IMG/VR virus record: IMGVR_UViG_3300045988_168162
Location: 1-64,000 of that record
Reading direction: 5' to 3' (one strand)
DNA: 64,000 nt
DNA from: a virus
The translations under genes were made by a program, and so were the position numbers. Of the stretch, positions 9,373-60,673 are shown piece by piece (position 1 is the stretch's first letter; each line of letters starts with the position of its first letter). Below the pieces are notes generated by a model, which saw only the letters and a list, made by a program, of their open reading frames with translations, did not search any database and had not been told where the DNA came from.

Positions 9373-9376
9373 AGTA

Positions 9377-9586
9377 TCACCTCCGTTTTTCGTAATATTT
9401 GGCGGCCTCAGTCCTTGTGCGCTGGACGATTTTATCTGTCTCTTTGACATCGCGGCCGGAAGCACATTTGACGCATTTGATACGCCAGTTGCTTTGACCG
9501 GTATAGTGGCGCTCGAAATGGCCGTAACCGACGGGGACAAATTTACCGCAGCAGTAGCAGTAACCTGGGAATTTATTACGGGCCAA
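9377..9586 (-). CDS. zinc-ribbon protein (69 aa)
   Basis: CYCCGK .. CVKCAS cysteine pairs, basic C-terminus, TTG start. Confidence 0.5.
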   Translation of the reverse strand: MARNKFPGYCYCCGKFVPVGYGHFERHYTGQSNWRIKCVKCASGRDVKETDKIVQRTRTEAAKYYEKRR

Positions 9587-9734
9587 TGGTAATCACATCC
9601 TTATCGTTTTTCTTGAAGTTCATCGCATCAGTTACTTCCTCTGCAATTTTGTCAAAGAACTGTTTGGCAAATTCATCGACAGTAACATTTCCGGTAAGAA
9701 TATCACATGGATTCAATATTTTATGCTTGTCCAT
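9576..9734 (-). CDS. hypothetical protein (52 aa, below track cutoff)
   Basis: ATG 9734 (MDKHKILNPCD..) is embedded in the last codons of the upstream gene. Fills an otherwise empty gap. Confidence 0.4.
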   Translation of the reverse strand: MDKHKILNPCDILTGNVTVDEFAKQFFDKIAEEVTDAMNFKKNDKDVITIGP

Positions 9735-9963
9735 AGAGTTCCTCGAAACTAACAGTCGGCTCTACTGTAGTTACTGGCATGTTCCGTGCAAGGAAGTAAT
9801 CGACAGCGTTTAGCGGCACGATATAAGGATCTCCGCCATTAAATTTTGGATACAGGTAGATATATTCAGGATCCAGTGTACCAGCAGCCATATAGCCGTA
9901 CTCTCTGCAGAAGCCTTGCAGTTTATCAATCAAGGCGTCCTTTTCAGCTTTTGAAAGTGTCAT
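9721..9963 (-). CDS. small protein with C-terminal PTVSFEELY tag
   Basis: Ends ..VEPTVSFEELYGQA. Start at MTLSKAE (ATG 9963) inside the tag codons of the upstream gene. Confidence 0.5.
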   Translation of the reverse strand: MTLSKAEKDALIDKLQGFCREYGYMAAGTLDPEYIYLYPKFNGGDPYIVPLNAVDYFLARNMPVTTVEPTVSFEELYGQA

Positions 9964-10240
9964 ACAATTCCTCAAAATCGATAGTTGGGGATTGCAAAGT
10001 TTCTGACTGCGCATAGTCGCTTATATCAGGCTGCACGAACCAGGCTGTCTCGCATTTATTACCAGAATTATCTTGAATAAAAACAGGGCCATACAATGGT
10101 AGGTCGTAATAACCACCGTATCGATCACAATACCAGTCCAGATAATGTTTGACTTCAATAAACCGTTTGGTCGTGTTAATAATGATTTTCTTTCTGAATA
10201 TGTTTTTATCCTGTTCTGCGGTACTATTATTCATGTTCAT
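9944..10240 (-). CDS. small protein with C-terminal PTIDFEELY tag
   Basis: Ends ..QSPTIDFEELYDTFKS. The start ATG lies inside the upstream tag codons. Confidence 0.5.
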   Translation of the reverse strand: MNMNNSTAEQDKNIFRKKIIINTTKRFIEVKHYLDWYCDRYGGYYDLPLYGPVFIQDNSGNKCETAWFVQPDISDYAQSETLQSPTIDFEELYDTFKS

Positions 10241-10436
10241 AGAGTTCCTCGAAACTAACGATGGGCTTAGTCGCCGGAATACTGACAGGTCTTACATCGC
10301 CGTCTTTTGTGTAAACTGGAACCCCTGCAAGCGAAAAAATGTACTTATCCGCCACGCTCATGAGACCGCTTTCTGGTGCGGTGATGTAATATCCGTTTGT
10401 ACATGATGTAGTACTTTTATTAAATATATAGGTCAT
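10227..10436 (-). CDS. small protein with C-terminal PIVSFEELY tag
   Basis: Ends ..TKPIVSFEELYEHE. Confidence 0.5.
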   Translation of the reverse strand: MTYIFNKSTTSCTNGYYITAPESGLMSVADKYIFSLAGVPVYTKDGDVRPVSIPATKPIVSFEELYEHE

Positions 10437-10768
10437 TTTGTTTCCCCGTATAAATCTTGGAAACTGACAGTTGGAACTATTGGCTCGATACTCACCGTAG
10501 ACTGGCCAGGCTTTTCATCCATATGCGCTGCAAACATTTCCATCATTGCTGCCAAAGATTTTCCGCATACTCTGCCGCCGTTAATCATTTTGGTATATTT
10601 AAGTTCCGTGTCATCAACTACAGAAATATGACTTCCATTTTTGAAGTAATAATCACGCGGCACAAGGTAGCCAGCATCAGCAAACCATCTATCGTATCCT
10701 GGGTAAGCCTTATCAAGAGCCTTGATAATGCTTTCGTATTTGGTTTCGGCTATATCATTCCATTCCAT
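10433..10768 (-). CDS. small protein with C-terminal PTVSFQDLY tag
   Basis: Ends ..IVPTVSFQDLYGETK. ATGA-type overlaps on both sides. Confidence 0.55.
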   Translation of the reverse strand: MEWNDIAETKYESIIKALDKAYPGYDRWFADAGYLVPRDYYFKNGSHISVVDDTELKYTKMINGGRVCGKSLAAMMEMFAAHMDEKPGQSTVSIEPIVPTVSFQDLYGETK

Positions 10769-15737: not shown

Positions 15738-15749
15738 GCGCACCACACT

Positions 15750-23350: not shown

Positions 23351-23361
23351 TATGTATCTCC

Positions 23362-24721: not shown

Positions 24722-24730
24722 AGTTCCTCC

Positions 24731-25303: not shown

Positions 25304-26042
25304 CTTGGAACCTCCAGGAGAAAAAATGACGGATCAGTTTATTGGCCAGCCAGTCAAAGGCCATGCTGACAAGGATAATGGTGAGAATACCGGCAAAGGA
25401 AATGGCGGTGCGGCCGCGAGCGGTACTGGTATAGATGATATAGCCGATACCGTATTTGGCATTGATCTGTTCGCAGACGGCGATGTAAGTCCAGCCGATA
25501 CCATACATCATGGTGAAGGTTTGCAGGATACTGGGCAGGGTGCTGGGCAGCAGAACCATAGTAAGAATCTGGAAGCGATTCATGCCGAGAGTGCGGGCAG
25601 TAAGCATCAAATCCGGGCTGACTTCTTGAAAGGCGAGAACAACACTGGGCAGCATGTAGACGAAGGTTGCCAGAAACAGGAAACTGATCTTCATCTGTTC
25701 GCCGATACCAAACCACAAAATCAATAGCGGGTAAAAAGCTGTGATGGGCAGAAAACGCATGAGGTTGGTAATGGGTAAGATTATTGCCTTAGCCGTAGAC
25801 GAGTAAAAGACCAGCATGCCGAGGGGCAAACTGACTGCAGCGGCAAGCAGGCTGGCGGCTGTAATGCGCCAAAAAGAATAAACAAGACCGTAAACGAGCT
25901 GGCCGTTTGTAAGAAGGGAAACAAATTCATCCAGAACGCTGGCGGGGCTGGGCACAAACAGCGGAGAGACGGCCATGGAAGCGAGCTGCCAGAGAATAAG
26001 AACCAGGGCAAGCGGCAGAACGGTCTTGATTTTAGGTTTCAT
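25287..26042 (-). CDS. ABC transporter permease (SsuC/TauC-like)
   Basis: About 6 TM helices and an EAA-type loop (ARTLGMNRFQILTMVLLPSTLP). Overlaps the ATPase gene. Confidence 0.8.
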   Translation of the reverse strand: MKPKIKTVLPLALVLILWQLASMAVSPLFVPSPASVLDEFVSLLTNGQLVYGLVYSFWRITAASLLAAAVSLPLGMLVFYSSTAKAIILPITNLMRFLPITAFYPLLILWFGIGEQMKISFLFLATFVYMLPSVVLAFQEVSPDLMLTARTLGMNRFQILTMVLLPSTLPSILQTFTMMYGIGWTYIAVCEQINAKYGIGYIIYTSTARGRTAISFAGILTIILVSMAFDWLANKLIRHFFSWRFQDAHTA

Positions 26043-31469: not shown

Positions 31470-33008
31470 TTATACGAATAAAATACCCGTATTTTTTGCA
31501 ACAAACCTGCACTTTCCTGCTGCAATTTTATTTGTATTTGTATCATAGTACGTTGTTGCTTTTCCATTTCGAGAAGATACAATCCCTTGCATTATATGAA
31601 TTTGCTTTTTGACAAGAAAAATACTTCCTGGATAATTACGGTTCGGATTCCTGTATGTTTGATGATGTTTTTCAACTTTTAGTTTGCAAACAGTATTTTG
31701 ATTTTTTTTACGAAATTCTTCCAAACTATCTACAACCTGTTCAACAGCCTTATGCCGATTAAATGCTACTTTTTTACCATTGAACGTATATATGCGACTC
31801 ATGTTTGCATTATTTAACGCCCTCCTATCGTGACGACGGAACTGTTTAAGTTCATACGGTGCACGACTGTTGATTGTACTATCACAAACATCGTTAGGCA
31901 AAACAGAACAGGCAATGCAATAGGCATCGAGCCAGTGGTCTTTGCTTATACCGTGTGCTGCACGGTAATCGTAGGTGCTTTTTCCCGTTGTTACGAAAAA
32001 GTGCTTTTGAAAAAGAGAACTTAATTCTTTCGTCAGTGCCGGAATGATTTGATTCAATACACTCAAAGCACCATATTTTTTATTGAGTCCTGTTTTCTTT
32101 TTGGCGAGTTTTTCTTGCCATGCAGTATCCTTATGTACGAGGTTATGATGCTTTGCGCATAAGCCAACGATATTGGCAATTGTGTTGCTGCCATTTTTAT
32201 GTTGCGGTACTACATGATGGTAATGTTCAATAGGTTTCTTACAAAACAAGCAGTGCTGTTCCTGCATTTCAGAAACAGCGCTCTCAAGATCCCCTTTTTG
32301 ATAGAGTGGACCCTGTTGGTACTGCCACTTCTTGATAACGGGATTATCAAGCTGCATGAAAGCAAATTTGTTAACCTCAAGCACAACATCACTGATGGGA
32401 AGGAATTTTTGAATTTTCTTAACCAAGTTGATGTGTGTTTTGAGCAACTGATTTGCAGTAGGCGTAAGCCAGCCTTCCGGTCTTGTGCGATTGTTGAACT
32501 TTGCTTCTTTGTTCTTGATGCCAATGCAAAGGACTTCTTTCTCGCAACCCGGAAGATGGCGCTTAATGACGCCAATTTCTTTTGCACGCTTGCTGACGCT
32601 GCCATTTTGGGCAGTGTCTTGCTTCACGCACTTTTTAGAAATAGTGCCATTGGCTTTTGCTCTCCGCTGACGACGGCATCGTCTACCATTGGTACGTCTT
32701 GCACGGCGGGAATCCTTACGCTTTTTCATCAATTTCGGAATTTCCTTGTTACGGGTTTCCAGATGTGCGGTAAAGACTGCCGTGCCGTCCGTTTTAACAA
32801 CAGCAACACCGATATTGGTTCTGCCGGGGTCGATGCCCAAGTAAAGCGGTTGCACCACATCGTCAGTTTCATACAACAGTTGAATGGTAAACGGCTTTGT
32901 TCTTACGGCTCGTGCTTTCTGCTCTTTAAGAAGATGGCGTACATGCCCACAGCGAGTCGTAGGCATTAAAGGTTTACCGTCTTTATTAAGCACATATACA
33001 GTGGACAT
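31470..33008 (-). CDS. iscB: IscB RNA-guided nuclease (512 aa)
   Basis: PLMP motif (DGKPLMPT), RuvC-I LGIDPGRTNIG, Arg-rich bridge helix RRARRTNGRRCRRQRR, HNH (CLFCKK..HHVVP..N..LCAKHHNLVH), RuvC-III DHWLDAYC. ATG 33008 follows AAAGGAGG. Confidence 0.85.
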   Translation of the reverse strand: MSTVYVLNKDGKPLMPTTRCGHVRHLLKEQKARAVRTKPFTIQLLYETDDVVQPLYLGIDPGRTNIGVAVVKTDGTAVFTAHLETRNKEIPKLMKKRKDSRRARRTNGRRCRRQRRAKANGTISKKCVKQDTAQNGSVSKRAKEIGVIKRHLPGCEKEVLCIGIKNKEAKFNNRTRPEGWLTPTANQLLKTHINLVKKIQKFLPISDVVLEVNKFAFMQLDNPVIKKWQYQQGPLYQKGDLESAVSEMQEQHCLFCKKPIEHYHHVVPQHKNGSNTIANIVGLCAKHHNLVHKDTAWQEKLAKKKTGLNKKYGALSVLNQIIPALTKELSSLFQKHFFVTTGKSTYDYRAAHGISKDHWLDAYCIACSVLPNDVCDSTINSRAPYELKQFRRHDRRALNNANMSRIYTFNGKKVAFNRHKAVEQVVDSLEEFRKKNQNTVCKLKVEKHHQTYRNPNRNYPGSIFLVKKQIHIMQGIVSSRNGKATTYYDTNTNKIAAGKCRFVAKNTGILFV

Positions 33009-33240
33009 ATACGCCACCTCCTTTACGATAAGTCTCCCCTGCCGAAGCGGGAGGTTATGTTTCCCTTGGCTAGGTAGCAGCTTAGTAGTGTTGCAAGCTG
33101 GGAAAACCTGCAAGTACATCTGCTATCTTGATGTACAAAAGTACATCTGCCTGTGATATTGAAGGAACTTAGTGGAATGATATTATTTTATTAAAGTTCT
33201 TCAATACCCTACGACGATGTGCCGTTTCGGAAACCCGGAT
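33009..33240 (-). ncRNA. candidate IscB omega-RNA (HEARO-like) scaffold
   Basis: 232-nt non-coding leader immediately 5' of iscB with several hairpins (GATGTAC-TTTT-GTACATC; TAGCAG..CTGCTA; CTCCCGC-TTCG-GCAGGGGAG). The position matches known IscB omega-RNAs. Boundaries unknown. Confidence 0.45.
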
Positions 33241-38325: not shown

Positions 38326-39792
38326 TTATAATAGGGGAGCATTGTGCTCCTGCATAAAAAGTTCTGCGTTTCGGCGCAGGAGACAGGGATCATTTTGGAA
38401 CTTGCCATCTACCACGCATTGCAGAAGATGGTTAAAGCATTGGCCGAACAAAGGGCCAGGACGATAGCCCATCTCCATAAGATCATGACCATTGATGTGC
38501 AGGTCCTGGATGGAGAGCTTGCGCCCCTCGAAAATTGCGATAGCGAGATACAGGTATGTGATTTCGGCCTTGCGCATAGCGTTCATAGTGCCAAACTTGG
38601 TATAATCGACACCGTGGGCGTAGAGATCAGCAAAACGGACAGCCATAAGCAGCTGGGCATTGACAGGACCAAGAGCGGCCAGCAGACGATTGGCACAGCG
38701 GACGGTGGGTTCAAATTGGCGGTCGTGGTTTTTGATGAGCAGGACGATCCGTTCCCGTTCCGCGTTAGAAAACTTGAGGCGGCGAAGAATGTCATCGGCA
38801 AGTTCGGCACTTTTTTCAGCATGGCCGTAAAAGTGGCCGGTGCCGCCATCATCGACCGTATAGCATACTGGTTTGGCAATATCATGCAAAAGCATCGTTA
38901 TGCAGAGCTCGAACCAGTGAGCGTGGATAGCAGCGGTAAACTCGGGGAGTTTTTGGGTGACGCTCTTCAGTTCCACGACAGACTTTAGAATATGATCTTG
39001 CACGGTGTAGATATGATAGGGACTGTGCTGCTGAAAATCACGACTGAGATAAAGTTCCGGGATAATTTCTTCCAGTACGTCGATATAATCGAAAAGAAGC
39101 AGACTGAAATCATCGTGCTCATAGCTGGAGGTGAAGATTTTGCGGAGTTCGGACTGTACACGTTCGGCGGAAAGACCGACAAGCATCTGAACATTCGCAT
39201 GAATTGCTGCTTCGGTTTGTACATCGATCGTCAAATCATAGCTGACGGCAAAGCGCAGGGCACGTAAGATACGCAGAGGGTCCTCCTGGAAGCGTTTGTT
39301 AGGGTCACCAACGCATTTGATGAAATTGCTGCACATATCCGCATAGCCTTTAAAGGGGTCGACGATCCCAATCGTGTAAGTGCCTTCTTGGGATGCATCA
39401 TCATTCGGTAAAATTCTGCCAGCGATGGCATTCATGGTGAAATCACGGCGGGCAAGATCTTCTGTGATATCATCGACAAACTCGACCGTATCAGGATGGC
39501 GGTGGTCTTTGTAAATGCCGTCTTTACGCATGGTTGTGACTTCGTACTGGCCGTCCGGCATGATAACTGTAACAGTGCCATGCTTGATGCCGGTATCAAT
39601 GGTAGGAGAGAAGAGAGATTTTACCGTGGTTGGGTCGGCCTGGGTGACAACATCATAATCGTGCGGTGTTTTATCGAATAGAATGTCCCGCATACAGCCA
39701 CCAACAAGGTAGGTTTTATAACCGGCACCTTCTAACTGGAGGACAAGGGTAACAAGATCATGCGGCAGGGGGATACCTTGTAGTACAGGCAT
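38326..39792 (-). CDS. cca: tRNA nucleotidyltransferase (CCA-adding enzyme) with HD-like region
   Basis: Head-domain motif LVGGCMRDILFDKTPHDYDV, RRDFTMNA, and a later LLHDIAKP HD-type motif. Confidence 0.8.
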   Translation of the reverse strand: MPVLQGIPLPHDLVTLVLQLEGAGYKTYLVGGCMRDILFDKTPHDYDVVTQADPTTVKSLFSPTIDTGIKHGTVTVIMPDGQYEVTTMRKDGIYKDHRHPDTVEFVDDITEDLARRDFTMNAIAGRILPNDDASQEGTYTIGIVDPFKGYADMCSNFIKCVGDPNKRFQEDPLRILRALRFAVSYDLTIDVQTEAAIHANVQMLVGLSAERVQSELRKIFTSSYEHDDFSLLLFDYIDVLEEIIPELYLSRDFQQHSPYHIYTVQDHILKSVVELKSVTQKLPEFTAAIHAHWFELCITMLLHDIAKPVCYTVDDGGTGHFYGHAEKSAELADDILRRLKFSNAERERIVLLIKNHDRQFEPTVRCANRLLAALGPVNAQLLMAVRFADLYAHGVDYTKFGTMNAMRKAEITYLYLAIAIFEGRKLSIQDLHINGHDLMEMGYRPGPLFGQCFNHLLQCVVDGKFQNDPCLLRRNAELFMQEHNAPLL

Positions 39793-40798
39793 GGTAGTTT
39801 ACCTCCATAACGAGTTCTTCTACCCGTTTATAATCCGAGGTTTTGGGGAGCATGGTGTTGGCTTTGTCATATTGCAGGCGCTTTTCATACTGATCGATGA
39901 GATCGAAAAACTCCTGGTAGTAAGTGCCGTCCGGCTTTTGGAACTTACCGGCGCGGATCTCCAAGAGGAAATCGCGGTCGTTTTCGCGGTAGGTGTTGAT
40001 CTCGCCTTTTTCAAGAATATCAAAGCACATGAGATAAAGCCAGACCAGGTGCATGGCGTGCTTATTCAGATGCAGATCATCCTTTTTGCTGTTGCGCTTT
40101 CCGAGCTTGGCGTACTGGCCGATGACCGTGCCGAGATCAGAATTCATTTCCTTAAAGCTGCGGAGTGGATAATGTTTAAGGTCGCAGTCAATGAAGATTT
40201 CTGTCTCCATGCCCTCTGTTACGCCTTTGTCAATATATAGGTGAACGGAATCACCAGGGATATCGGCGTGCTGCAAACGGAAGTTTTCAAAGACAGATTT
40301 GCAGGTGCCTAGAATATGGCGCTCTTTTTCATCCTGGTGATAGTGGTCATGTGCCAGGGCATTTTGCAGGCGGCGCAGCTGCTGATTGGCATAACCGCCA
40401 AAAGCGTGGACGGCCGTTTGAGAGAGAAATAGTTTTTTATTTTCAATAAGCATCTGGCCCGCCGGAGTGATGTAAAAATACTGGTCCGGTTTATTGCCGA
40501 GAAGTTCGATCGTGTTGGGATTACAAGAGAGCAGTAGACTGACGAGCTTATTGAAACCGAAGATCGTAGTGTCGGTGCCAGTATCAACACGCTGCTCAAA
40601 ATTAGAGAAACCGAGAATATCCTGCGGGGAGTTCATGGCACAGCCGCGGACATCCACATCCGAACCTTCGACATTGGTGCCATAGGCGTGACTGCCGCCG
40701 AGCGTTAGGAACATAATGTTTTCGCCCAGGTGCGGATCGGTGCGCAAGAAATCATAAGCAGGGGACAAGATCAGGTCATCGAATTCGTTTTGTGTCAT
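39758..40798 (-). CDS. pol-beta-fold nucleotidyltransferase (RlaP-like)
   Basis: GGSHAYGTNVEGSDVDVRG is a minimal G-S .. DxD nucleotidyltransferase motif. Confidence 0.6.
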   Translation of the reverse strand: MTQNEFDDLILSPAYDFLRTDPHLGENIMFLTLGGSHAYGTNVEGSDVDVRGCAMNSPQDILGFSNFEQRVDTGTDTTIFGFNKLVSLLLSCNPNTIELLGNKPDQYFYITPAGQMLIENKKLFLSQTAVHAFGGYANQQLRRLQNALAHDHYHQDEKERHILGTCKSVFENFRLQHADIPGDSVHLYIDKGVTEGMETEIFIDCDLKHYPLRSFKEMNSDLGTVIGQYAKLGKRNSKKDDLHLNKHAMHLVWLYLMCFDILEKGEINTYRENDRDFLLEIRAGKFQKPDGTYYQEFFDLIDQYEKRLQYDKANTMLPKTSDYKRVEELVMEVNYHACTTRYPPAA

Positions 40799-43445: not shown

Positions 43446-43787
43446 TCATTCCTTGATAATAAGAGCGCAGCTGCCGATGCGGTTGATGAAATCCTCGCCG
43501 TAGGTTTTATACAGCTCTTCAAAATCAGGGGTGTAGATGACATCATCGACATCGTGGAAATACTGGGCGAGCAGCTCGGCCATATCAACATCGGTAAGAC
43601 CGTAAAACTCATTGGTGAGGAACAGCTGGCCCAAGAGATTGCCGACTTCTTCAAACGGCGGGCCAAACTTGTCCAGCGAAATGTAATCGATATACTCGCC
43701 GTCGGAATCATAGAATTTGAGACGATCAGATTCCTCGGCGTTATTGGCGGACAGGAACTGGTTAGAAAATGAAAGAGATACGGACAT
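43446..43787 (-). CDS. hypothetical acidic protein
   Basis: ORF in a tight array. Confidence 0.45.
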   Translation of the reverse strand: MSVSLSFSNQFLSANNAEESDRLKFYDSDGEYIDYISLDKFGPPFEEVGNLLGQLFLTNEFYGLTDVDMAELLAQYFHDVDDVIYTPDFEELYKTYGEDFINRIGSCALIIKE

Positions 43788-50485: not shown

Positions 50486-50800
50486 TCAGACCATACTGTA
50501 CAGGTCTGCGAATGTAAGAATGGGGTGGACTGCTTCGGCCTGTACCGTGCCGGTAGCACAATCAATTTCTGCTATATCCACCATCATAAGGTGTCCATCC
50601 CAGGTTCTAATCATATATGTTTCACTATAGAGGGAGTTGGCACAATCCATAATAGTAGCCAGGTGGCCATAACGATGTTTATTAGAGCTGAAAGCCCAGA
50701 CTTCACCAATTTTGATATCGCCATGATTATCTTCGCCAAATTCCTTTGCTAGATCATCCCAGCTGCGGAGCTTGACGGTGTCATCGATGTTGTAGGTCAT
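50486..50800 (-). CDS. SH3-like-domain paralog with C-terminal tag (..HPILTFADLYSMV)
   Basis: N-terminal DDTVKLRSWDDLAKEFG module shared with the five upstream paralogs, plus the shared C-terminal motif. Confidence 0.55.
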   Translation of the reverse strand: MTYNIDDTVKLRSWDDLAKEFGEDNHGDIKIGEVWAFSSNKHRYGHLATIMDCANSLYSETYMIRTWDGHLMMVDIAEIDCATGTVQAEAVHPILTFADLYSMV

Positions 50801-50814
50801 AAAATCACCTGCCT

Positions 50815-51393
50815 TTACGGTGTAACAGAAAAGAGATCGTCGAACGAAATGGTGGGGGCGATGATAGTTGCGGAATCCTTAATGACGCAATCAATGCAGT
50901 ATTTGGTGAACTCAAAATATTGGAATGAAAATTCAGGCTCGGGCATATCCTCGACGATAATTCCTTCAATTCTTTCATCACCCTGCTTATAGGTTTTGAT
51001 TTCTTTGATCGTAAGCGGAACATCGACGAAGAATTTAGAAAAATCACCGCTAAGGCAGGTCGGGTTGTCATTCTCGGGGCCCAGGCCGTTCATATTAAAA
51101 TCGGCCTGCATATCAGCCCAGGAGCGAAGCTGAATCCTATCGCCGGGGTAATAGGCTGGTTCCGGCTCGAGCATTTCATCGCCCCAGCTCCAATAACTTA
51201 AATCAGACAAGAAATCTATATAATAACTACATTCATATACACACGTGATTTTGCCCCAGCGGCCGCAATATTCACGCATAGTATCGGTAAATGTCAAGGG
51301 AACCAGAATGTTTCCATATACGTCCATACCATATTCAGCTTCCATATCGTCCCACTGGCGGATACGGACCCAATCGCCTACTTTATGCTGCAT
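50815..51393 (-). CDS. two-module paralog with C-terminal tag (..APTISFDDLFSVTP)
   Basis: GDWVRIRQWDDMEAEYG and a second GDRIQLRSWADMQADF module. Conserved junction AATGTGAGGTGATTTTGT-ATG. Confidence 0.55.
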   Translation of the reverse strand: MQHKVGDWVRIRQWDDMEAEYGMDVYGNILVPLTFTDTMREYCGRWGKITCVYECSYYIDFLSDLSYWSWGDEMLEPEPAYYPGDRIQLRSWADMQADFNMNGLGPENDNPTCLSGDFSKFFVDVPLTIKEIKTYKQGDERIEGIIVEDMPEPEFSFQYFEFTKYCIDCVIKDSATIIAPTISFDDLFSVTP

Positions 51394-51404
51394 ACAAAAT
51401 CACC

Positions 51405-51977
51405 TCACATTGCGGCATCAGAGAAAAGATCGGAAAAAGACAGCGTGGGGACGACTTGCGGTAAAGAGGTTGGCACAGCGTGGCAAAACTCATAGCCAGA
51501 AAAAACATACATTTCGAGGTGTGTGTTCTCTTTACAGAATATATGATAGTGATAAATACCTGCACCTCTGTGCGTTATATCCTTGATCGTGGCAAGGACA
51601 GGATTTTGAAACCTGGATTCAAATTCAGGCTTCGTAAAAAATGTCGGATTTATACTTTTGTCGACCCCATTCATATCGAAATCACGATCCAGTGCGTCCA
51701 TACTGCTGACGATGACCTGATCTCCTACCTGGTAGGGCTCATTTGGTTCCAGCATAGCATCTTTCCAGTACCAATTATTATCGACACCTTTAAAGGAGAT
51801 CCGACAAGCATTGCCCCATATGTCTGTTATTTTGCCCCAGCGGCCGCAGAGCTTTTGCATTTTGGGAGCAAAACAAAATTCATCAACCAGAAGGCAATCA
51901 TGATCATCCTTACGGTATTCTTGACAAAGGTCATCCCATTGGCGAACACGCACCCAGTCACCAATTTTATATTTCAC
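51405..51977 (-). CDS. two-module paralog with C-terminal tag (..VVPTLSFSDLFSDAAM)
   Basis: GDWVRVRQWDDLCQEY and GDQVIVSSMDALDRDF modules. GTG start after GAGGTGATTTTGCC. Confidence 0.55.
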   Translation of the reverse strand: MKYKIGDWVRVRQWDDLCQEYRKDDHDCLLVDEFCFAPKMQKLCGRWGKITDIWGNACRISFKGVDNNWYWKDAMLEPNEPYQVGDQVIVSSMDALDRDFDMNGVDKSINPTFFTKPEFESRFQNPVLATIKDITHRGAGIYHYHIFCKENTHLEMYVFSGYEFCHAVPTSLPQVVPTLSFSDLFSDAAM

Positions 51978-51989
51978 GGCAAAATCACC

Positions 51990-52322
51990 TCACATTGCAA
52001 AAAGTTCTTCAAAGGAGACTGTAGGTTCGACCTGGTCGGAAACAGGATCTAACATATCATCGTTAAAACCCCATAGCATGTAAGATATATCATCGGGAGA
52101 TAAAACATTGCCGTTATCATCCTGTAAATTGTAGCGATTACCAGACCTGCTTACCGTAAAAACCTGGCCGCAATACTTACGCATAGCTGGGTTAAAATAC
52201 AAACCGTTTACATTTGGCCCTGCCATGCTCGGTATCTTTTCATACTGCATAGCCCACTTAGAAACCAGCTCGTCCCAATCCTTGACGCGGACACAATCGC
52301 CGGGTTTGAATTTGTTTTTCAT
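51990..52322 (-). CDS. single-module paralog with C-terminal tag (..VEPTVSFEELFAM)
   Basis: GDCVRVKDWDELVSKW module, YCGQVFTV core, tag. Confidence 0.55.
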   Translation of the reverse strand: MKNKFKPGDCVRVKDWDELVSKWAMQYEKIPSMAGPNVNGLYFNPAMRKYCGQVFTVSRSGNRYNLQDDNGNVLSPDDISYMLWGFNDDMLDPVSDQVEPTVSFEELFAM

Positions 52323-52669
52323 TGCAGTGCCCCTTTGGCAAAAAGTTTTTCAAAAGACAAGGCGGGCTCGATCGCCATAGTAGGGACATCCTCGGCAGGC
52401 TCCAGCATTTTTTCACTGAATGACCATGTTATTTTGAAATCACGAGAGCGAAGAATATCCCCGGCATCGTCTACAAGATTGAAATAATCTCCGCTGTATT
52501 TGCAAATTGTATAAACATGACCGCAATACGGGATCATGCGGGAGTTAAATAAAAGACCGTCGATACGAAATCCGTCTACGACGGGCACCATATCTTTGGC
52601 ATTCTCGCTGATGGCTGTGAGTGCTTCCAAGCTTTTGACACGGACGCGGTCGCCGATACGATAGGGCAT
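52319..52669 (-). CDS. single-module paralog with C-terminal tag (..IEPALSFEKLFAKGALQ)
   Basis: GDRVRVKSLEALTAIS module, YCGHVYTI core, tag. Confidence 0.55.
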   Translation of the reverse strand: MPYRIGDRVRVKSLEALTAISENAKDMVPVVDGFRIDGLLFNSRMIPYCGHVYTICKYSGDYFNLVDDAGDILRSRDFKITWSFSEKMLEPAEDVPTMAIEPALSFEKLFAKGALQ

Positions 52670-52672
52670 GTA

Positions 52673-53296
52673 TCATTCATCCTTTCCAAAAAGTTCTTCA
52701 AAAGAAACAGTGGGCTGTGTGATGATGGACTGGACAAATTTGCTGCAGTAATAAAGCGTGCTGAGGGGAAATTTCCAGGTAGTATCATTCTCGTCCTGCA
52801 GATTGGCAGCAGTAGTGTCGCCATTGCGATCATAACTTATATGAACGATCTGATACTTTTTAAGGCACATCTTTTTCATGCTTCTGGTGATAAAGATGTT
52901 ATTGACCATACAGTCAGGATCAACCAATGTGGCAGGGGGATTTGCCTGGGCAATGATTTCATTCCAGGGACGCACCCAGACGCTGCTGCCTACTGTTACA
53001 GGAACCTCAGAAGCAGGAACGGCTTCGTACAAAAGAGTATCAGAGAAGATCATCTGACCGCCATCTTTGTAGCGGACAACCATGCACGTCATAGGATCAA
53101 TAAGATCATAACGGATGAGGCATGTCCTTGCATGTATCTGCCCAACACGCATAAGACGGCCGCAGTAAGCAGCTTTTTCCTTATTGAAGCTGATACCGTC
53201 CCTTGTATAAAACGCCTCATCGTTACTACGGCCATTTTCCGCGAGGATCGTTTCAAGGCTGCGGACGATGACCCAATCTCCTGCTTTATAACTCAT
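52673..53296 (-). CDS. two-module paralog with C-terminal tag (..TQPTVSFEELFGKDE)
   Basis: Start at MSYKAGDWVIVRS (ATG 53296). Second module SSVWVRPWNEI. Tag present. Confidence 0.55.
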   Translation of the reverse strand: MSYKAGDWVIVRSLETILAENGRSNDEAFYTRDGISFNKEKAAYCGRLMRVGQIHARTCLIRYDLIDPMTCMVVRYKDGGQMIFSDTLLYEAVPASEVPVTVGSSVWVRPWNEIIAQANPPATLVDPDCMVNNIFITRSMKKMCLKKYQIVHISYDRNGDTTAANLQDENDTTWKFPLSTLYYCSKFVQSIITQPTVSFEELFGKDE

Positions 53297-53912
53297 ACAG
53301 CTCCCTCGCTTTTTCTTCCGGAATGATTTCGGCATGGCTGCTGCCAAAGAAAGCCTCAAACATTTCATCGTCGTGATCGGTATGGAAGCCGCTGCAGCTA
53401 TCATGGTATTCCCAGGAACCCGTGTCAGTATCATAGACATAAACATCATAGACGTAGCTGGGACCGGTGAGATAATCATCGTAAGCCCGGATCTCATCCC
53501 GAATCAGCTTCTGTGCAGTCTGCTGCCAGTTTTCATCCGTGCCGAACTGGTCGATCACATTCTGTTTGGTGCAGATGGCGTAACCAATCTGACCGGAATC
53601 CCACTGATCATGATAGGGCAGCACACTGATGGAAATACCGCTGTGCGCATACAGGAACAACGGCAGAGCCACGAACTCCTGACCGATTTCACGGCGGGAA
53701 TCCAGTTCCGTGCGCGGATCATCGCAGGTGATATCGCCCCAGAAATAGCGGTTCTTGGTGGTGACAAGTTCGATCGTGCCGTAATCTTCGTGCGGGTTGA
53801 CGGGGTCGGTATCGTAGCTGGCGGTGACAAAATACAGTTCCCCATCCTTGGTAAGAACATAAATACCATCCATGGTCTGGGTCGTTTTGACCTCGATCGT
53901 AAGAGCGGACAT
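53286..53912 (-). CDS. hypothetical protein (208 aa)
   Basis: Start at MSALTIEV (ATGA-type overlap with the upstream stop). Conserved-looking core YAHSGISISV..WDSGQIGYA. No family assigned. Confidence 0.5.
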   Translation of the reverse strand: MSALTIEVKTTQTMDGIYVLTKDGELYFVTASYDTDPVNPHEDYGTIELVTTKNRYFWGDITCDDPRTELDSRREIGQEFVALPLFLYAHSGISISVLPYHDQWDSGQIGYAICTKQNVIDQFGTDENWQQTAQKLIRDEIRAYDDYLTGPSYVYDVYVYDTDTGSWEYHDSCSGFHTDHDDEMFEAFFGSSHAEIIPEEKARELYEL

Positions 53913-55336
53913 CAGGCTTCCTCCTTTTGGGAGCACTTTGTGACCACGGCATCGGCTGCGAAAACAAACCGGTCGGTCAGAGAATCGCTGTTGATGAAGA
54001 GCTCGCGGCGCAGATTGGCCTTGACGCCGAATTTTTCTTGAAAGGCAGTGAATAACGCGGGCCAATTCGGTTTCATCTCGTCATAGATCAGGTGATAGCT
54101 GGCGGCGCTGTGTGCGGTGCGGTCGTTGGTGACATCGACAACAGACTTGACTGCCGCATCAATACGGCTGCCGTTGTTCGGGTTGGCGGTGGTGGAACGC
54201 AGCCATTTGATCTTGGGCTTGGCGGAAGCTTTCTGCTCCGGCGTTTCCTGCTTAGGGGCTTCATTCCCAAAGCTGTTGGCATCAAACTCGGCCAGACCGT
54301 TTTTATCGTACTTGACCTTGGGGTTATCCTTGACGCAGTGGAGAATGGAATCGTTATAGAAATCCTCCAGCACCGTATCAAAGATCTCGCGCCACTGGCG
54401 GTTGTCCTCGATGGCGGTCATGGTGCTGAAGTTGCCGCCCGTGCGGGGATGCTTGTTCATGTAATCGCGGCGGAGCTGCCATTTGACAAAGCCATACGTC
54501 CTGGTCATTTTGTCGTAAATCAGATTGACGACTTCGCGGGAATCATCATATTTGCCGGGCTGATTGGCAAGGATCTTACGGACAGTGTCATATACTTCGC
54601 CCTTCCACTCGCTGGTGGTAGCGCGGTGCTTGGTCGGCTTGACATGGGGAATCTTGCACTGGGCGCTCTCCGCCTTTTCGTTGGCAGCAGCGGTGAACTC
54701 GGCATCAACAGCGGCGTCATCCGTGGATTGTGACTCGGCGACAGGTTCGTTCTTGGCAGTGAGCATGCGCTGGTTCTGCTCCAGGATATGGTTGGCCAGC
54801 AGGGACATGGTGTTCATCATGGCAGCCATGGCGGTGCGGGAATCCTTCTGATCCTCGATAAAAGACTGGACAAGCGTGTTGGTAGTCTCCTGAGACTTGA
54901 CCAGCGTATCAAACATCAATTTGAAGGTATCATTGCTGACGGCAGTCTGCTGGTCAGGGGCGGCGAGAACGGAGTTGCCGTTATAGAGGGACTCCATCAC
55001 ATTCCAGACAAAGTCCATGAACTTATCGGCTTTATCTTGGCGGGAGAAGCGGCAGATCTCCATGGTGCCACGAAGAGTGTAGACAAAAGTCTCATGATCT
55101 CGACCATCAGCCCCCCTCAAAGTGAGGTAGGCTGACAGGGGATTCAATCTGTCTGCATTTCTCGAATGGATCTGCTGAATAGCGTCATTAGGCTTTGCGT
55201 ATTCAAGGGCAGTCCCAATCTGATTGCGGGTCATATAGAATTCGTTGTCGTTGCCCTGCCAGAAATCACAGGTCAGAGTGCCAAAAGGCTTCTGGGTGGC
55301 GAGGGTGAGAGAAGTAGTTGCGGTAGGCATAATCAT
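53912..55336 (-). CDS. Bro-N/antirepressor-like domain protein (474 aa)
   Basis: N-terminal FGTLTCDFWQGNDNEFYMTRNQIGTALEY resembles the Bro-N/ORF6N module. Start at MIMPTAT after AAAGGAAA. Confidence 0.5.
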   Translation of the reverse strand: MIMPTATTSLTLATQKPFGTLTCDFWQGNDNEFYMTRNQIGTALEYAKPNDAIQQIHSRNADRLNPLSAYLTLRGADGRDHETFVYTLRGTMEICRFSRQDKADKFMDFVWNVMESLYNGNSVLAAPDQQTAVSNDTFKLMFDTLVKSQETTNTLVQSFIEDQKDSRTAMAAMMNTMSLLANHILEQNQRMLTAKNEPVAESQSTDDAAVDAEFTAAANEKAESAQCKIPHVKPTKHRATTSEWKGEVYDTVRKILANQPGKYDDSREVVNLIYDKMTRTYGFVKWQLRRDYMNKHPRTGGNFSTMTAIEDNRQWREIFDTVLEDFYNDSILHCVKDNPKVKYDKNGLAEFDANSFGNEAPKQETPEQKASAKPKIKWLRSTTANPNNGSRIDAAVKSVVDVTNDRTAHSAASYHLIYDEMKPNWPALFTAFQEKFGVKANLRRELFINSDSLTDRFVFAADAVVTKCSQKEEA

Positions 55337-55362
55337 TTTCCTTTCTTTGAAACAGATTTCTT

Positions 55363-55845: not shown

Positions 55846-56190
55846 TGTGTGATGTAAGCTGATAAGGTGGCTGCCTGGACCAGGAGGTGGTCCCAACTCG
55901 TTATTCAGAAGCTGCTGCTCAATTTTAGGAAGTCCTGGTACGATTTTCTGGGTACGAAGCACTGTTGATTGGACGTGTAAGTGAGCTAATCGCTATGGAC
56001 TCTGACGCTTTTGCCAGTCGTTAGTTGGCAGTAAACTCTGAATCTTCGCTGAAGAATCACTAGGATCGCGATGGCCATCGGCGACTCGCCGATCGTGGTG
56101 GGTGGACTGGGTAACAAATTCATACTCTCGGATATGACCTGAGAGTTTTTGCCTTGAACTACAAAGCAAAAGTAAACCTTACATAACACA
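55846..56190 (-). ncRNA. copy C of the structured-RNA element (345 nt) downstream of the RT gene
   Basis: Closed by a 13-bp inverted repeat with one mismatch (56178-56190 vs 55846-55858). Conserved module at 56109-56146. Same 5' layout as copy D. Confidence 0.55.
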
Positions 56191-56398: not shown

Positions 56399-57589
56399 TC
56401 AAGCTGCTTTGGGCTTGAGATCGTCAGAGATACAGGTGAGAAGATCGGCACCATATCTGGCGTTGTACTTTTGGATGACACCGGCAATGGTGGCGGGTTC
56501 TACACTAAGGTAGTAGCTGATATTGCCGCGGAACTTTTGGAGATCCTCTTCGTCCCATTTTTTGCCGTTGCGGCGGTCTTTGAAATAGGTTTCGATGGTA
56601 GCTTTAAGGATTTTGTGGTTTCGATAACCAACGGTAATATCGCCATCCTTATTGAGCATCAGACCGAGCATCCAGTTACGACCGGCGCGGGTGCCGAAGT
56701 GGGTCTTTTCGGTATTCAAGGTAAAGGGAGCATCGAGTTCATGAAGCATGGCGATCAGTTCCCGCTCGACCTTGCGGTAGTTGAAGAAGACCCGGCAGGA
56801 GATATGAATATCATCGGCATAGCGGGTGTAACAGATGCGGTCTGTGATGGGCGTGCCATCTGGGTTGACTTTGCCGCTTTGGAACTGGTTGAGCAGGCGG
56901 GCAAACTTATGGTCGAAGGGAATCATCATGACATTGGTGATGAAAGGGGAGAACGGGGTGCCCTGTGGCAGGCCGTTATTGAGAAACGCCAGGCTTAAAG
57001 CGCGGCGAAGCTCCCTGCGGCCGGTGGGGTCTGCCAGGATCAGGTTGAAGGGATAGATCTCTTCCATCTGTTTGAAGACAAAGTGCGGTGTGGTGGATGG
57101 GAAAAAGCCGTGGAAATCATAATGGCAGAAGTACCAGCTGCGGAACCGCTGATGCTTGATAACGGCATCCTTGGTGGAGCGGCCATTGACATAGGCAAAA
57201 GCGCAGGTGTGGTGGTCGGCAAACATCCAGCCGGACATCATATCCTTGAGCTGAGCCAATGCCTTTTTGAGTTCCGGGTGCGGGGCATCAATGGGACGCA
57301 TCTTGCCGCCGGTCTTTTTCGGGATCTCGAAATGATCGTAGAGTTCCCATTTGTTGGGGTAATCGATCAGATCCTTATAGCAGGTATTGAACATCTTGAG
57401 CTGGCTGATCATGGCGTCCAGGCAAGTGATTTTCATAATGCGCTCAGGAACTTTGTCGCATACAACGGTGCGGGTGGAGCCGTGACCGCCGGAACGTAAG
57501 GAATCCAGCGGAATATCGACACCGAGCATAAGTTCCTCGAACGTGATTTGACGAACGGTTTCGGGGGTATTGTAAGTTATGTATACCAT
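56399..57589 (-). CDS. reverse transcriptase, retron/Abi-like type (396 aa)
   Basis: FEIPKKTGGKMRPIDAP (RT1-2), NGLPQGTPFSPFITN (RT4), YTRYADDIHIS (YADD box in a retron-like context). Start at MVYITYN (ATG 57589). The longer track ORF runs into structured non-coding RNA. Confidence 0.85.
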   Translation of the reverse strand: MVYITYNTPETVRQITFEELMLGVDIPLDSLRSGGHGSTRTVVCDKVPERIMKITCLDAMISQLKMFNTCYKDLIDYPNKWELYDHFEIPKKTGGKMRPIDAPHPELKKALAQLKDMMSGWMFADHHTCAFAYVNGRSTKDAVIKHQRFRSWYFCHYDFHGFFPSTTPHFVFKQMEEIYPFNLILADPTGRRELRRALSLAFLNNGLPQGTPFSPFITNVMMIPFDHKFARLLNQFQSGKVNPDGTPITDRICYTRYADDIHISCRVFFNYRKVERELIAMLHELDAPFTLNTEKTHFGTRAGRNWMLGLMLNKDGDITVGYRNHKILKATIETYFKDRRNGKKWDEEDLQKFRGNISYYLSVEPATIAGVIQKYNARYGADLLTCISDDLKPKAA

Positions 57590-57607: not shown

Positions 57608-57944
57608 TGTTTGTGATCTTGAAGGAATGATGCTGATCTTGCGAAGCTGATCAGCTTCCTGGATTAGCTCCATACAGTGGTGGAATTGGCTTAAAACTCC
57701 AATCAGACAACTGACTGATGTCCAATCTGCGGCTGCCAAGTCTATTACATGACCAATCGACATCGATTGCCCGCTAAGTTAGCTTAAAATGCCCTTGATG
57801 TGAGCGGCGGAACTCGGCGATTCTTGTGGCACCCCCAGATGCGCCTGGCGCGTGCCTGCCCGGTCTGGGTAACAAATTCGTACTCTCGGATATGACCTGA
57901 GAGTCGTTGCGATTTACAAAATGCAACGGTAAACATCACAAACA
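57608..57944 (-). ncRNA. copy D of the structured-RNA element (337 nt) immediately upstream of the RT (retron msr-msd-like position)
   Basis: Closed by a perfect 10-bp inverted repeat (57935-57944 vs 57608-57617) that ends 19 nt before the RT ATG. Conserved module at 57867-57904. TATAAT box at about 57968. Confidence 0.55.
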
Positions 57945-57993: not shown

Positions 57994-58677
57994 TTACATG
58001 GCCGTGATAGCTCCTTCCGTGTCGAGATTGAAAGGCGCAACCAGGATCAAATCCTTGATCTTGCCATCCGTGACAAACTTTTGGAAGTTGATAACGGTCA
58101 TGGTGGCAGCCATGCGAACCGTGGGCGCTACACCAAGGACCTCGCCACAGGCGGAACGGGGCACCTCAGCGGTCGCTTCCTCGTGGGTGAAGTTCATACT
58201 GTCGAGCAGTGCTTTCTTGGCCTGCGGGTCACGCCAGTCGGCTGCATAAAGCTGGGCATCAAACAATGCCGTGCGGACATCAAACATCGCCTTGATATTG
58301 GCGTTGTACTGATTGCGCTTGACAATGTCGCGCCGGATCGCAATATCATCCACGGCCAGGAACACATAGCCTGCCAGCGGCTCACCATGCCAGCCATCGG
58401 GTTTGACCTTGACGGTTTCATTACAGGTCAGATTGATATTACCAAGAATATCTCGCAAGGCATCGACCTTTTTCATGCCGACATGGTCATCGAAGAACAT
58501 CTGGTTGACGAGGTTTTTCTCCTCGACCTTGTCCATATCCCAAAGGGTGAACTTGGTGAGACCGTAGCGGGCCAGCAGCTCGGCGATGGTAGAACCGACA
58601 GAACCGCAGCCAATAATGTGAATGGGAGCGGTGATCTTGGCGGGGTCGAAAACCTCGCGGCTCTTATTTAAATTCAT
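57994..58677 (-). CDS. ThiF/MoeB/E1-like adenylyltransferase (227 aa)
   Basis: Rossmann IIGCGSVGS plus DMDKVEEKNLVNQ. Start at MNLNKSRE after AGGAGGTCCCCG. Confidence 0.75.
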   Translation of the reverse strand: MNLNKSREVFDPAKITAPIHIIGCGSVGSTIAELLARYGLTKFTLWDMDKVEEKNLVNQMFFDDHVGMKKVDALRDILGNINLTCNETVKVKPDGWHGEPLAGYVFLAVDDIAIRRDIVKRNQYNANIKAMFDVRTALFDAQLYAADWRDPQAKKALLDSMNFTHEEATAEVPRSACGEVLGVAPTVRMAATMTVINFQKFVTDGKIKDLILVAPFNLDTEGAITAM

Positions 58678-59296
58678 CGGGGACCTCCTGACCGTAGGTG
58701 TACCAATCGTACTGCTTATAGTGGTTGTACTGGTTGAAATAGATGGGCGGCTGAACGACCGGCAGCGATTCGACCTTGACCATGGTTTTGACTTCATCCA
58801 GGAAGGACGGGTCAAAAGTATCGTAGGTAAGAAGAACTTCGTCCTGTTCACGAATCGTGCCATGATCGTAGATGTGGGCTGTGTAGTAGAGATCCTTGTT
58901 CCAGATCATGAAGATATAGAACTGGTTATCCGGGATGTGGCGTTCCTCCTGGCTTTGGATATCCGTACCGGAGGGGTGCGTGTCCATATAGACGTGGCTG
59001 TGACCGTGGTAGTGCAGGTCATCAAAGTTGGGATGCTCAAAGTACCAGCGGCCATATTCCTCCTGATCGACCACCACCGTAGCAGCGGTGACCGTTTGCG
59101 GATAGACCGTGATATCATAGACCTCCCAGCCATCCTGGATGGGGCGGGTAAGACCATGCCAGCCGATTTCGGTGTTATACTCGTTCAGCAGAGCGAGCTG
59201 TTTGTTCCAGGCATTGGCCGTGAAGTGGATATGAATGGGTTTCTTTGCGGGTGCCTTGACGGCGGGGGCCTTTTCATTCGGGCTCGTTTTGGACAT
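58664..59296 (-). CDS. JAB/MPN (JAMM) metalloprotease-like protein
   Basis: EIGWHG .. HSHVYMDTHPSGTD matches E..HxH-x7-S-xx-D. Overlaps the E1-like gene by 14 nt. Confidence 0.75.
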   Translation of the reverse strand: MSKTSPNEKAPAVKAPAKKPIHIHFTANAWNKQLALLNEYNTEIGWHGLTRPIQDGWEVYDITVYPQTVTAATVVVDQEEYGRWYFEHPNFDDLHYHGHSHVYMDTHPSGTDIQSQEERHIPDNQFYIFMIWNKDLYYTAHIYDHGTIREQDEVLLTYDTFDPSFLDEVKTMVKVESLPVVQPPIYFNQYNHYKQYDWYTYGQEVPDEFK

Positions 59297-59299
59297 GGC

Positions 59300-60673
59300 T
59301 TACGCCTCCTTTCCGTTCATTTCATCACAGACGATCTGCATGGCTTCCTTGAATGTGATATCGGTGCCATCTTGCGTGCGGATGACCTTGCCACTGCCGA
59401 GAACCAGCTGCTGCGTAACACGACCCATGGCCCAAGTCTCAGACAGGGACACATTGGATGCGCTTTGCTGCGTGATAGCCAGGGCAGCGATATAATCATG
59501 GTTGCGCTCGGCATCTGCAAGATCGCCTGCATAGCCGCCCAGGCAGGTGGCAAAAGCGATATGCGGGTTATTGATATAGTCCGCAGCAATAGGCTCCATG
59601 GGATCATCGGCTTCCACAGCGTGGACAGCGGCATCTCTGTTGATGATGTAAGTGGCGGCCATCTTGATCGTGAACCGATGATCAACAAAGACAGCGCGGT
59701 AGAACGCGGTCATCTGATCGTTATCATACGGGTTATCGATTTCATGGGAGCCGCGGCCGATGCTGGAATAACCATCGAGAACGTCAGGGTAGTTCAGCAC
59801 ATAAGAATCGACCATGTCCTCATCATAACAGGAGAGGGTGGTGAGCACCGTGTACTGGATATAACCACTGCCGATGCCGATATGATCGATACGGAATCCG
59901 CCGCTGCGCAGGTAATCATAGATTTCCTGGCGAAGCTGATTCGTGTCGGTTTTGCGAAGGTAGGCAATCTTTGCGTTGTACTCTGCAATGAGACGAAGAT
60001 GATCGGAGATGCGGCGCTGGTAGCTCTTGATCTCTTGTTCGGCTTCCTCGATATTGCGGGAGGCGGAGCGGATCTGATCAGCCTGTGCGTTGACGGTGAT
60101 CTCCTGGGCGGCAGAACGATACTCGATCATATCGTAAGCGTACTTAGCGATAAAGGAAGCCGTGGCGTCCCAGAAATCTTTGCGCGATGCTGCGTTATCT
60201 TTTTGACTGATCTTGTAGACCAGCTGAAGCAGCGCGTATTCATCGGGCTGAAGCTTCTGTTCACCCTCGAACAGCCAGGGCAGGAGCATGGGGATGGCAC
60301 TAATCACACGAAGCCAGATCGCATGGCGTGGACGTACCGCCTGGTCAACATTCACGACGGCCCTGCGCTTATCGGGCAGGATAAAGACCTTGCTGTGCTC
60401 CGGGGCGATATAGTTTTCAAGCCGGGTCACACTGGTAAGGTTACTGGTAACAGGGAACGGAACCGTCCTGAGATAAAGGAACTCCGCATCCGTATCACCG
60501 TTATGGCCGTTTTCAAGATGAAGCGTTTCCGTTCTGGGGGCAACCACACACATCCAGACGGCCTGGAGGACGAGCAGATCATCACCGCTGACGGCGTAAT
60601 ACTGGTCACTGGTGAACCGCCCCTGCATGGAGCTTTCAAACGCTTTCGAGAGGATTCTTTCGTTGATTTCCAA
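59300..60673 (-). CDS. hypothetical protein of the E1/JAB cassette (457 aa)
   Basis: Central coiled coil. C-terminal NNPHIAFATCLGG loosely recalls an E2 HPN..C active-site loop (speculative). Confidence 0.5.
   Translation of the reverse strand: MEINERILSKAFESSMQGRFTSDQYYAVSGDDLLVLQAVWMCVVAPRTETLHLENGHNGDTDAEFLYLRTVPFPVTSNLTSVTRLENYIAPEHSKVFILPDKRRAVVNVDQAVRPRHAIWLRVISAIPMLLPWLFEGEQKLQPDEYALLQLVYKISQKDNAASRKDFWDATASFIAKYAYDMIEYRSAAQEITVNAQADQIRSASRNIEEAEQEIKSYQRRISDHLRLIAEYNAKIAYLRKTDTNQLRQEIYDYLRSGGFRIDHIGIGSGYIQYTVLTTLSCYDEDMVDSYVLNYPDVLDGYSSIGRGSHEIDNPYDNDQMTAFYRAVFVDHRFTIKMAATYIINRDAAVHAVEADDPMEPIAADYINNPHIAFATCLGGYAGDLADAERNHDYIAALAITQQSASNVSLSETWAMGRVTQQLVLGSGKVIRTQDGTDITFKEAMQIVCDEMNGKEA

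Follow-up and report, generated by a model that had tools for sequence, protein, structure and literature searches.

A short C-terminal peptide conserved on tandem SH3-like proteins and on unrelated small proteins of a large phage: a possible docking motif

The 64,000-nucleotide stretch analyzed here (positions 1 to 64,000 of IMG/VR virus record IMGVR_UViG_3300045988_168162, hereafter the window) carries at 50486-53296 an array of six genes for small SH3-like proteins, all of which end in variants of one peptide, P-[TAI]-[VIL]-[ST]-F-x-[DEK]-L-[FY], followed by 2-6 residues. We refer to this peptide as the tag. The count of ten tagged proteins in 64 kb given by an earlier note on this DNA is correct, with six in the array and four in a second group of genes at 9.7-10.8 kb, cluster 1. 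The tag has a constant anatomy, is under selection as a peptide, is portable between protein bodies, and has changed in a concerted way in a sister clade. The explanation we prefer, tentatively and with somewhat less than even confidence, is that the tag is a docking motif that tethers diversifying SH3-like adaptors to one common receptor, with a replication-associated hub as the likeliest class.

The six open reading frames (ORFs) of the array exist as described, and the C-terminal strings quoted for all six proteins are exact. The genes lie on the minus strand, however, and the positions originally listed for them are those of their stop-codon ends. They are:

p6: 52673..53296, minus strand, 207 residues, two SH3-like modules and the tag QPTVSFEELF then GKDE (tag codons 52688-52717)
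p5: 52319..52669, minus strand, 116 residues, one module and the tag EPALSFEKLF then AKGALQ (tag codons 52340-52369)
p4: 51990..52322, minus strand, 110 residues, one module and the tag EPTVSFEELF then AM (tag codons 51999-52028)
p3: 51405..51977, minus strand, 190 residues, GTG start, two modules and the tag VPTLSFSDLF then SDAAM (tag codons 51423-51452)
p2: 50815..51393, minus strand, 192 residues, two modules and the tag APTISFDDLF then SVTP (tag codons 50830-50859)
p1: 50486..50800, minus strand, 104 residues, one divergent module and the tag HPILTFADLY then SMV (tag codons 50498-50527)

The array genes are tightly packed, with spacings of -4 to +14 nt, and the p5 stop overlaps the p4 start (ATGA). 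The start of p6 was set from orthologues, 75 clusters of which are 207 residues long. Promoter-like and terminator-like sites inside the array are no more numerous than expected by chance, and we therefore read the array as one operon continuing from a Bro-N-like gene and a 208-residue gene upstream. The protein bodies are acidic (isoelectric point 4.1-5.5), and proteins with two modules bear a single tag, at the very end.

Cluster 1 holds five genes, one of which has lost its tag in the window:

c1d: 10433..10768, minus strand, 111 residues, not SH3-like, tag VPTVSFQDLY then GETK
c1c: 10227..10436, minus strand, 69 residues, tag KPIVSFEELY then EHE
c1b: 9944..10240, minus strand, 98 residues, tag SPTIDFEELY then DTFKS
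c1a: 9721..9963, minus strand, 80 residues, tag EPTVSFEELY then GQA, with the start MTLSKAEKD set from orthologues
Fifth gene: 9576..9734, minus strand, a 52-residue remnant

Orthologues of the fifth gene are 126-135 residues long, are tagged, and end in KPSVSFEELYKKDVTTIGP.

The tag stands out from its background. The ten tags score 24.5-35.5 bits on their own matrix and the next best 10-mer in six frames of the 64 kb scores 15.2; since these ten tags also supplied the matrix, the gap is in part circular. Every tag is 2-6 codons from its stop, with none at the free C-terminus, and a relaxed six-residue pattern has 10 C-terminal matches as opposed to 4 elsewhere. When ORF C-termini were clustered de novo, the tag group emerged in the window; the same clustering in a 176-kb distant relative (313 ORFs) gave chance pairs only. 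When IMG/VR was searched with the tag as a DNA pattern, tagged genes were found in contigs of this clade only. There were five other matches, four of them internal and the fifth abutting a stop only 12 residues past the previous stop.

Two tag-like strings occur elsewhere in the window. The string ITFEELM, noticed earlier near the N-terminus of the reverse transcriptase (RT), is real (RT residues 15-21, window 57527-57547) and scores only 11 bits; in the sister clade it is kept as MTFEELL, about 130 residues upstream of RT motif 1. A 113-residue ORF at 43446-43787 has IYTPDFEELY 20 residues before its stop. This string is kept in four relatives (L001-L004) and may be a degenerate or internal tag.

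The proposal of the earlier note that the tag is conserved for its peptide sequence and irrespective of translational signals is borne out by synonymous codon variation and by the ratio of nonsynonymous to synonymous differences (pN/pS). Serine is encoded in the ten tags by TCG, TCT, TCC and AGT, and thus by both the TCN and AGY families, and leucine is encoded by five codons. When the window was compared with seven related loci, pS was 0.177 in the tags and 0.163 in the rest of the proteins, while pN/pS was 0.19 and 0.51, respectively, making the tag value 2.6-fold lower at equal pS. The amino acid changes seen in tags are I/T, I/V, V/L, T/I, A/T, E/K and E/D, with a further E/M change at the first, variable position. 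Of the 120 homologue clusters listed, all of them orthologues of p2 or p6 and mutually no more than 90% identical, 119 keep the tag and the single exception is cut inside it. With this ratio and this retention, the tag neither evolves neutrally nor is absent from orthologues, two outcomes that the earlier note had set against its own claim.

These results weigh heavily against the idea that the conservation reflects a function in nucleic acid or translation, be it a Shine-Dalgarno (SD) or coupling signal, a recombination linker, an RNA structure, or a nascent-peptide pause at the stop. There are reasons to consider it: the tight coupling of the array genes, a GAGGAA in cluster-1 tags that sits 5-6 nt before the next ATG, and the swapping of bodies while tag and tail remain unchanged, as a recombination linker would allow. 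However, the tag codons of paralogues differ synonymously, even between TCN and AGY, and synonymous differences are as frequent in the tag as in the body, so the codon evidence rules out a coupling signal, an RNA structure or a recombination linker as the reason for the conservation. In the array, moreover, the SD sequence is never inside the tag. The earlier note had placed the SD of each next gene after the stop, which is true of the junctions p4 to p3, p3 to p2 and p2 to p1, all of which share a repeated ...TGAGGTGATTTT..., but not of p6 to p5 and p5 to p4, where the SD falls within the 4-6 trailing codons after the tag. A positioned arrest peptide is also a poor fit, because the distance from tag to stop varies, from 2-6 codons in the window to as many as 12 in the sister clade. 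A nucleic acid or translational function thus strikes us as extremely improbable.

The tag is portable, since most homologues of the module do not have it and related phages have it on different bodies. Among the 150 best representative module homologues, just 15 bear a tag and 135 do not. With their tags removed, the cluster-1 proteins have no detectable similarity to the module or to each other. The c1c slot of one relative (L016) is filled by a different 68-residue body with the tag EPTVSFEELY then KHE, and in another relative (L001) a 116-residue deletion variant of p2 retains its tag. Another sub-clade has a single tagged gene at the cluster-1 position. In three sub-clades, and in spite of gene turnover, the space between exonuclease and DnaE repeatedly holds small tagged genes. 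No tagged genes were present in relatives of the replication module that are more distant (L024, L025 and Geobacillus virus E3).

This distribution argues against the tag being an intramolecular or family-specific structural element, one that packs on the SH3-like barrel or mediates self-association and needs no common external receptor. Four or five carriers lack an SH3-like module altogether, most of the best module homologues are untagged, as just described, and the linker before the tag varies in length and is modeled with low confidence. In favor of such an element, SH3_15/REP domains are peptide-binding modules, as seen for Mind bomb 1 with a Jagged1 peptide (PDB 4xi7), and the nine modules and ten tags of the window would allow a multivalent network. 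We regard this as very doubtful.

A further property of the tag is its concerted change in the sister clade. The two sister contigs (L022 and L023) share the backbone of the window, including the ThiF, RT and Bro-N-like genes, and have two arrays, with 13-14 genes of about 100-135 residues. Their tags all end in P-S-x-[ST]-F-D-[DSEQ]-[LIF]-[LIM], often followed by [KQ]-G. Whereas all ten tags of the window end in F or Y, none of the 27 tags of the sister contigs does; tag endings are mixed in one further fragment (L021). That every paralogue in a genome switched together points to a single receptor evolving with the tags. The change from F/Y to L/I also provides a built-in specificity control, and a co-variation signal for a computational search for the receptor.

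The number of tagged array genes differs between clades as well (4, 6 or 13-14). It is tempting to speculate that the tag and its receptor form a lineage-specific address code, in which a hub, encoded by the phage or by its host, would read an F-x-x-L-[F/Y] helix here and F-D-D-L-L in the sister clade, clipping on an expandable array of SH3-like adaptors together with orphan proteins. We hold this wider scheme to be unlikely, if far from negligible. If true, it would be a multivalent platform for recruitment such as has not been described in siphoviruses of Bacillota. It could organize the site of replication or redirect a host machine, and would supply orthogonal peptide-receptor pairs. On the docking reading in general, one peptide should fish out the hub, and the hub should explain a block of 'dark matter' genes.

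Structural models are consistent with a helical tag. In the AlphaFold model of p4, residues 104-108 (FEELF) form a one-turn helix that starts after the conserved serine, with a low confidence of 63-71 for linker and tag. The p3 model has a corresponding helix at 181-185 (FSDLF), again after the conserved serine, although the predicted local distance difference test (pLDDT) value is below 50 for residues 170-190. In its sequence pattern, the tag may conform to a helix capping box plus hydrophobic staple, with V, I or L at N', S, T or D in every tag at the N-cap, mostly E or D at N3, and L at N4. Such capping would leave F, L and F/Y on one face of the helix.

An exposed, hydrophobic C-terminal peptide common to unrelated proteins could also be a degron or a tether to a protease or chaperone. 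It would then either limit the lifetime of its carriers or allow them to act, in the manner of SspB, as adaptors handing bound host proteins over to a Clp- or Lon-type machine. SspB-type adaptors consist of a binding domain, a flexible linker and a short C-terminal tether, and the array proteins match this architecture. Still, the tag is unlike the tags known for ClpX, ClpA or Lon, whose ends are typically non-polar (LAA, for example), and its variable tail of 2-6 residues argues against recognition of a free C-terminus. No protease gene was seen in the window. Protease tethering is a live rival to docking at a hub, but we consider it distinctly unlikely.

The bodies of the array proteins are tandem paralogues of an SH3-like module, in agreement with the original description. 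A tag-free profile of the module finds nine copies in the six proteins, two each in p2, p3 and p6, and no further match in the window at E<=10. Pfam SH3_15 (PF18346) matches p3 at 22.1 bits and p2 at 18.0 bits, below the gathering cut-off of 24 bits, and matches no other array protein. A homologue (P0130) exceeds that cut-off with 37 bits, so the wider module family does touch SH3_15. The N-terminal modules of p3 and p2 also match PHROG 7488, of unknown function (E = 5.7e-8 and 2e-3, respectively); Pfam, PHROGs and NCBIfam gave nothing for p1, p5, p6 or the cluster-1 proteins.

Fold comparison points, at weak E-values, toward the same family. The p4 model (pLDDT 85) has as its top Foldseek matches in the PDB the REP domain of Mind bomb 1 (4xi6, 4xi7, 4tse) and the SPbeta protein YorP (2heq), with probabilities of 0.97-1.0 but weak E-values of 0.045-0.07 and template modeling scores of 0.41-0.49. 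Its best viral fold matches are uncharacterized phage proteins, also with weak E-values. The N-terminal module of p3 is modeled at a pLDDT of about 80-89 and the second module poorly. The label 'SH3-like' is therefore a reasonable one on profile and model grounds, while membership of SH3_15 proper is not established. The structural and profile relatives that were looked at differ from the window proteins in having no tag.

The module itself is widespread. A profile search of 1.84 billion representative proteins found 2,563 representative clusters related to it at E<=0.001. A typical relative begins MKYKVGDKVRVRQWDDM..EFG, and many have several modules or are fused to other regions. The array proteins themselves have 235 homologue clusters in metagenome assemblies, although the six-gene array had no blastn match among INPHARED phages and a scan of GTDB genomes found no relative of p6. 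The wider SH3_15-like module is a very common, uncharacterized phage domain, and the tag is a clean, strongly selected mark on ten function-unassigned proteins in an abundant group of metagenome-assembled phages. In the literature we found nothing relevant on the tag strings, SH3_15 or YorP in this context, and no description of the tag or of the function of this SH3-like gene family.

How might a docking motif work? The tag would form a self-capped, one-turn amphipathic helix (V/I/L at N', S/T/D at the N-cap, then F-x-[E/D]-L-[F/Y]) at the tip of a flexible linker, and the F/L/F face would plug into a hydrophobic, probably basic-rimmed groove of the receptor. The SH3-like bodies would be fast-evolving binding modules, so that the array and the four unrelated small proteins could link various ligands or activities to one and the same hub in the course of infection. 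Binding, the adaptor role and the identity of the receptor are what we infer from these properties of the tag. The likeliest class of receptor would be a sliding clamp or some other protein of the replisome, by analogy with the T4 gp45 tool-belt. We favor a replication-linked hub because tagged genes recur between the exonuclease and DnaE genes, because of the T4 precedent, and because of the acidic -LF tips on two proteins of this phage family.

Terminal docking peptides shared between proteins are an established principle. T4 uses them to couple replication to late transcription and to load anti-restriction proteins into the head; we know of few other phage examples. The closest analogues of the tag are the clamp-binding tails and the capsid-targeting sequence (CTS) of T4. 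T4 gp43, gp55 and gp33 carry hydrophobic, acidic, interchangeable C-terminal tails on divergent linkers, by which they bind gp45 (PMC2988020). Like these tails, the tag is a short C-terminal peptide of hydrophobic and acidic character, found on several unrelated proteins after a linker of variable length. Unlike them, it is borne by diversifying small SH3-like proteins rather than by a polymerase and sigma factors; the polymerase here, of the DnaE type, is untagged.

Clamp-binding motifs of other systems offer partial likenesses. Peptides bound to clamps are extended, whereas the tag is predicted to be helical. The spacing of the PIP-box core [ILM]xx[FY][FY] (PMC9690074), Phi-x-x-Phi-Phi, is the same as that of F-x-x-L-F in the tag. 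The bacterial beta-clamp motif QL[SD]LF is usually C-terminal and ends in [SD]-L-F (PMC9690074); two of the tags have DDLF or SDLF as their last residues, and tag and motif have only the terminal [DE]-L-F in common. The tags nevertheless have no Gln/Leu at positions 1-2, no Gln at the position required by Q-L-[SD]-L-F or Q-x-x-L-x-F, and one extra residue.

The acidic tips belong to two other proteins of the phage. The exonuclease (10768-11868) ends in DDDEELF and the SSB-like protein (16872-17978) in DEEEYF, each directly at the stop. Among exonuclease homologues down to 30% identity, 87 of 96 end in -LF and 66 of 96 in -DLF, and most homologues of the SSB-like protein end in -[DE][DE]LF. From these sequences, both look like a family-wide docking tip of the T7 gp2.5 or SSB C-terminal kind. 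The tips of SSB (DDDIPF) and of T7 gp2.5 and gp4 combine an acidic run with a hydrophobic residue and Phe, and dock replisome partners. They need a free terminal Phe, a feature shown by the exonuclease and the SSB-like protein but not by the tags. A YorH-like protein (15189-15746) ends in DLSFFQDDDDE and its orthologues in DISDFLFDDEEG or DISSFLDDE, another conserved hydrophobic, acidic tail in the replication module.

Several points weigh against docking at a replication hub. No receptor was found, nor was a clamp gene among the proteins scanned in the window, which spans 64 kb of a genome of roughly 146 kb. The 368-residue protein at 16872-17978 was considered as a clamp and rejected, as it had no match among solved structures; its tail and its position beside an AAA_24 gene suggest that it is SSB-like instead. 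DnaE (6160-9540) ends in ...TRYSHVR, with no tag-like match, and the tags lack the Gln of the bacterial clamp motif. The tags are also never at a free C-terminus, unlike the tips of the exonuclease and the SSB-like protein, and those tips stay -LF in the homologues seen while the tags of the sister clade became -LL, so tips and tags may have different receptors. Finally, the carrier bodies are acidic, and all evidence for binding is inferential.

The second T4 precedent suggests a different role for the tag, that of a capsid-targeting or packaging signal recognized by scaffold, portal or capsid interior. The carriers would then be diversifying small anti-host proteins that are packed into virions and injected with the DNA. 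C-terminal cargo tags are known for the HK97 protease and for encapsulins. The internal proteins of T4 are highly diverse small proteins that share only a terminal address peptide of about 10 residues (PMC3012670), the same logic of variable bodies and a constant terminal peptide, and a body pN/pS of 0.51 with copy-number turnover between 4, 6 and 13-14 genes would fit cargo in an arms race. The CTS, however, is N-terminal and is removed by the prohead protease, whereas the tag is C-terminal and its carriers are acidic, when packaged DNA-associated proteins are mostly basic. The carriers also have early or replication-type genes as neighbors, four being placed between exonuclease and DnaE, and no structural genes are nearby. 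Capsid targeting is likewise a live rival, and one we judge unlikely.

A Bro-N-like gene (53912..55339, minus strand) lies directly upstream of the array and adjoins the tagged arrays in every related contig that was read; in the sister clade there are arrays on both sides of it. By position only, it is a candidate partner of the tagged proteins. A ThiF/E1-like gene with two unannotated partners of 210 and 457 residues (57994-60673) is kept in both tag-bearing clades. The distant genome MT835469 is uninformative on co-occurrence of the tag with the ThiF operon or the Bro gene, as it shares almost nothing with the window.

The array is also close to the RT gene (56399-57589, minus strand). The array genes were considered as targets of a diversity-generating retroelement and rejected, as no template/variable repeat pair links the RT to the array 3' ends. 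The only repeats at 49-62 kb are the N- and C-termini of the paralogues and two 49-nt direct repeats, 92% identical and each with a hairpin, that bracket the RT gene (56104-56152 and 57862-57910). Given these flanking repeats and the absence of the RT from one relative (L004), the RT looks like an insertable cassette.

The window comes from a large gut phage, related contigs of which measure about 137-153 kb. Nearly every gene of the window is on the minus strand. The gene content includes:

Nucleotide metabolism and replication: NrdD, ThyX, a DnaE-type polymerase, a PD-(D/E)XK exonuclease, a primase and a DnaB-like helicase
Further genes: an AAA_24 protein, a Pnkp/RNA-ligase fusion, a CCA-adding enzyme, the RT, a ThiF-like protein and a Bro-N-like protein

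Judged by DnaE, Geobacillus virus E3 and Bacillus phage Tsamsa are the named phages most closely related to it (38% identity), and the nearest database record comes from human feces. The order helicase-primase-exonuclease-DnaE is common to the window and Geobacillus virus E3.

Three further loci were noted. A 549-residue, IscB-like protein with RRXRR and HNH domains (31470-33119) lies in a patch of lower GC content and adjoins a long stretch with no convincing ORF (about 33.1-34.6 kb, non-coding); together they may be an OMEGA-type element with a guide RNA. A transporter-like set at 21788-26042 consists of an NMT1-type binding protein fused to an OmpA-like domain, a PspA/IM30 protein, an ABC ATPase and a permease. 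An RNA-repair kit (18564-20810, 38326-39792 and 39758-40798) comprises a Pnkp-type kinase/phosphatase fused to a T4-type RNA ligase, a CCA-adding enzyme and an RlaP-like nucleotidyltransferase.

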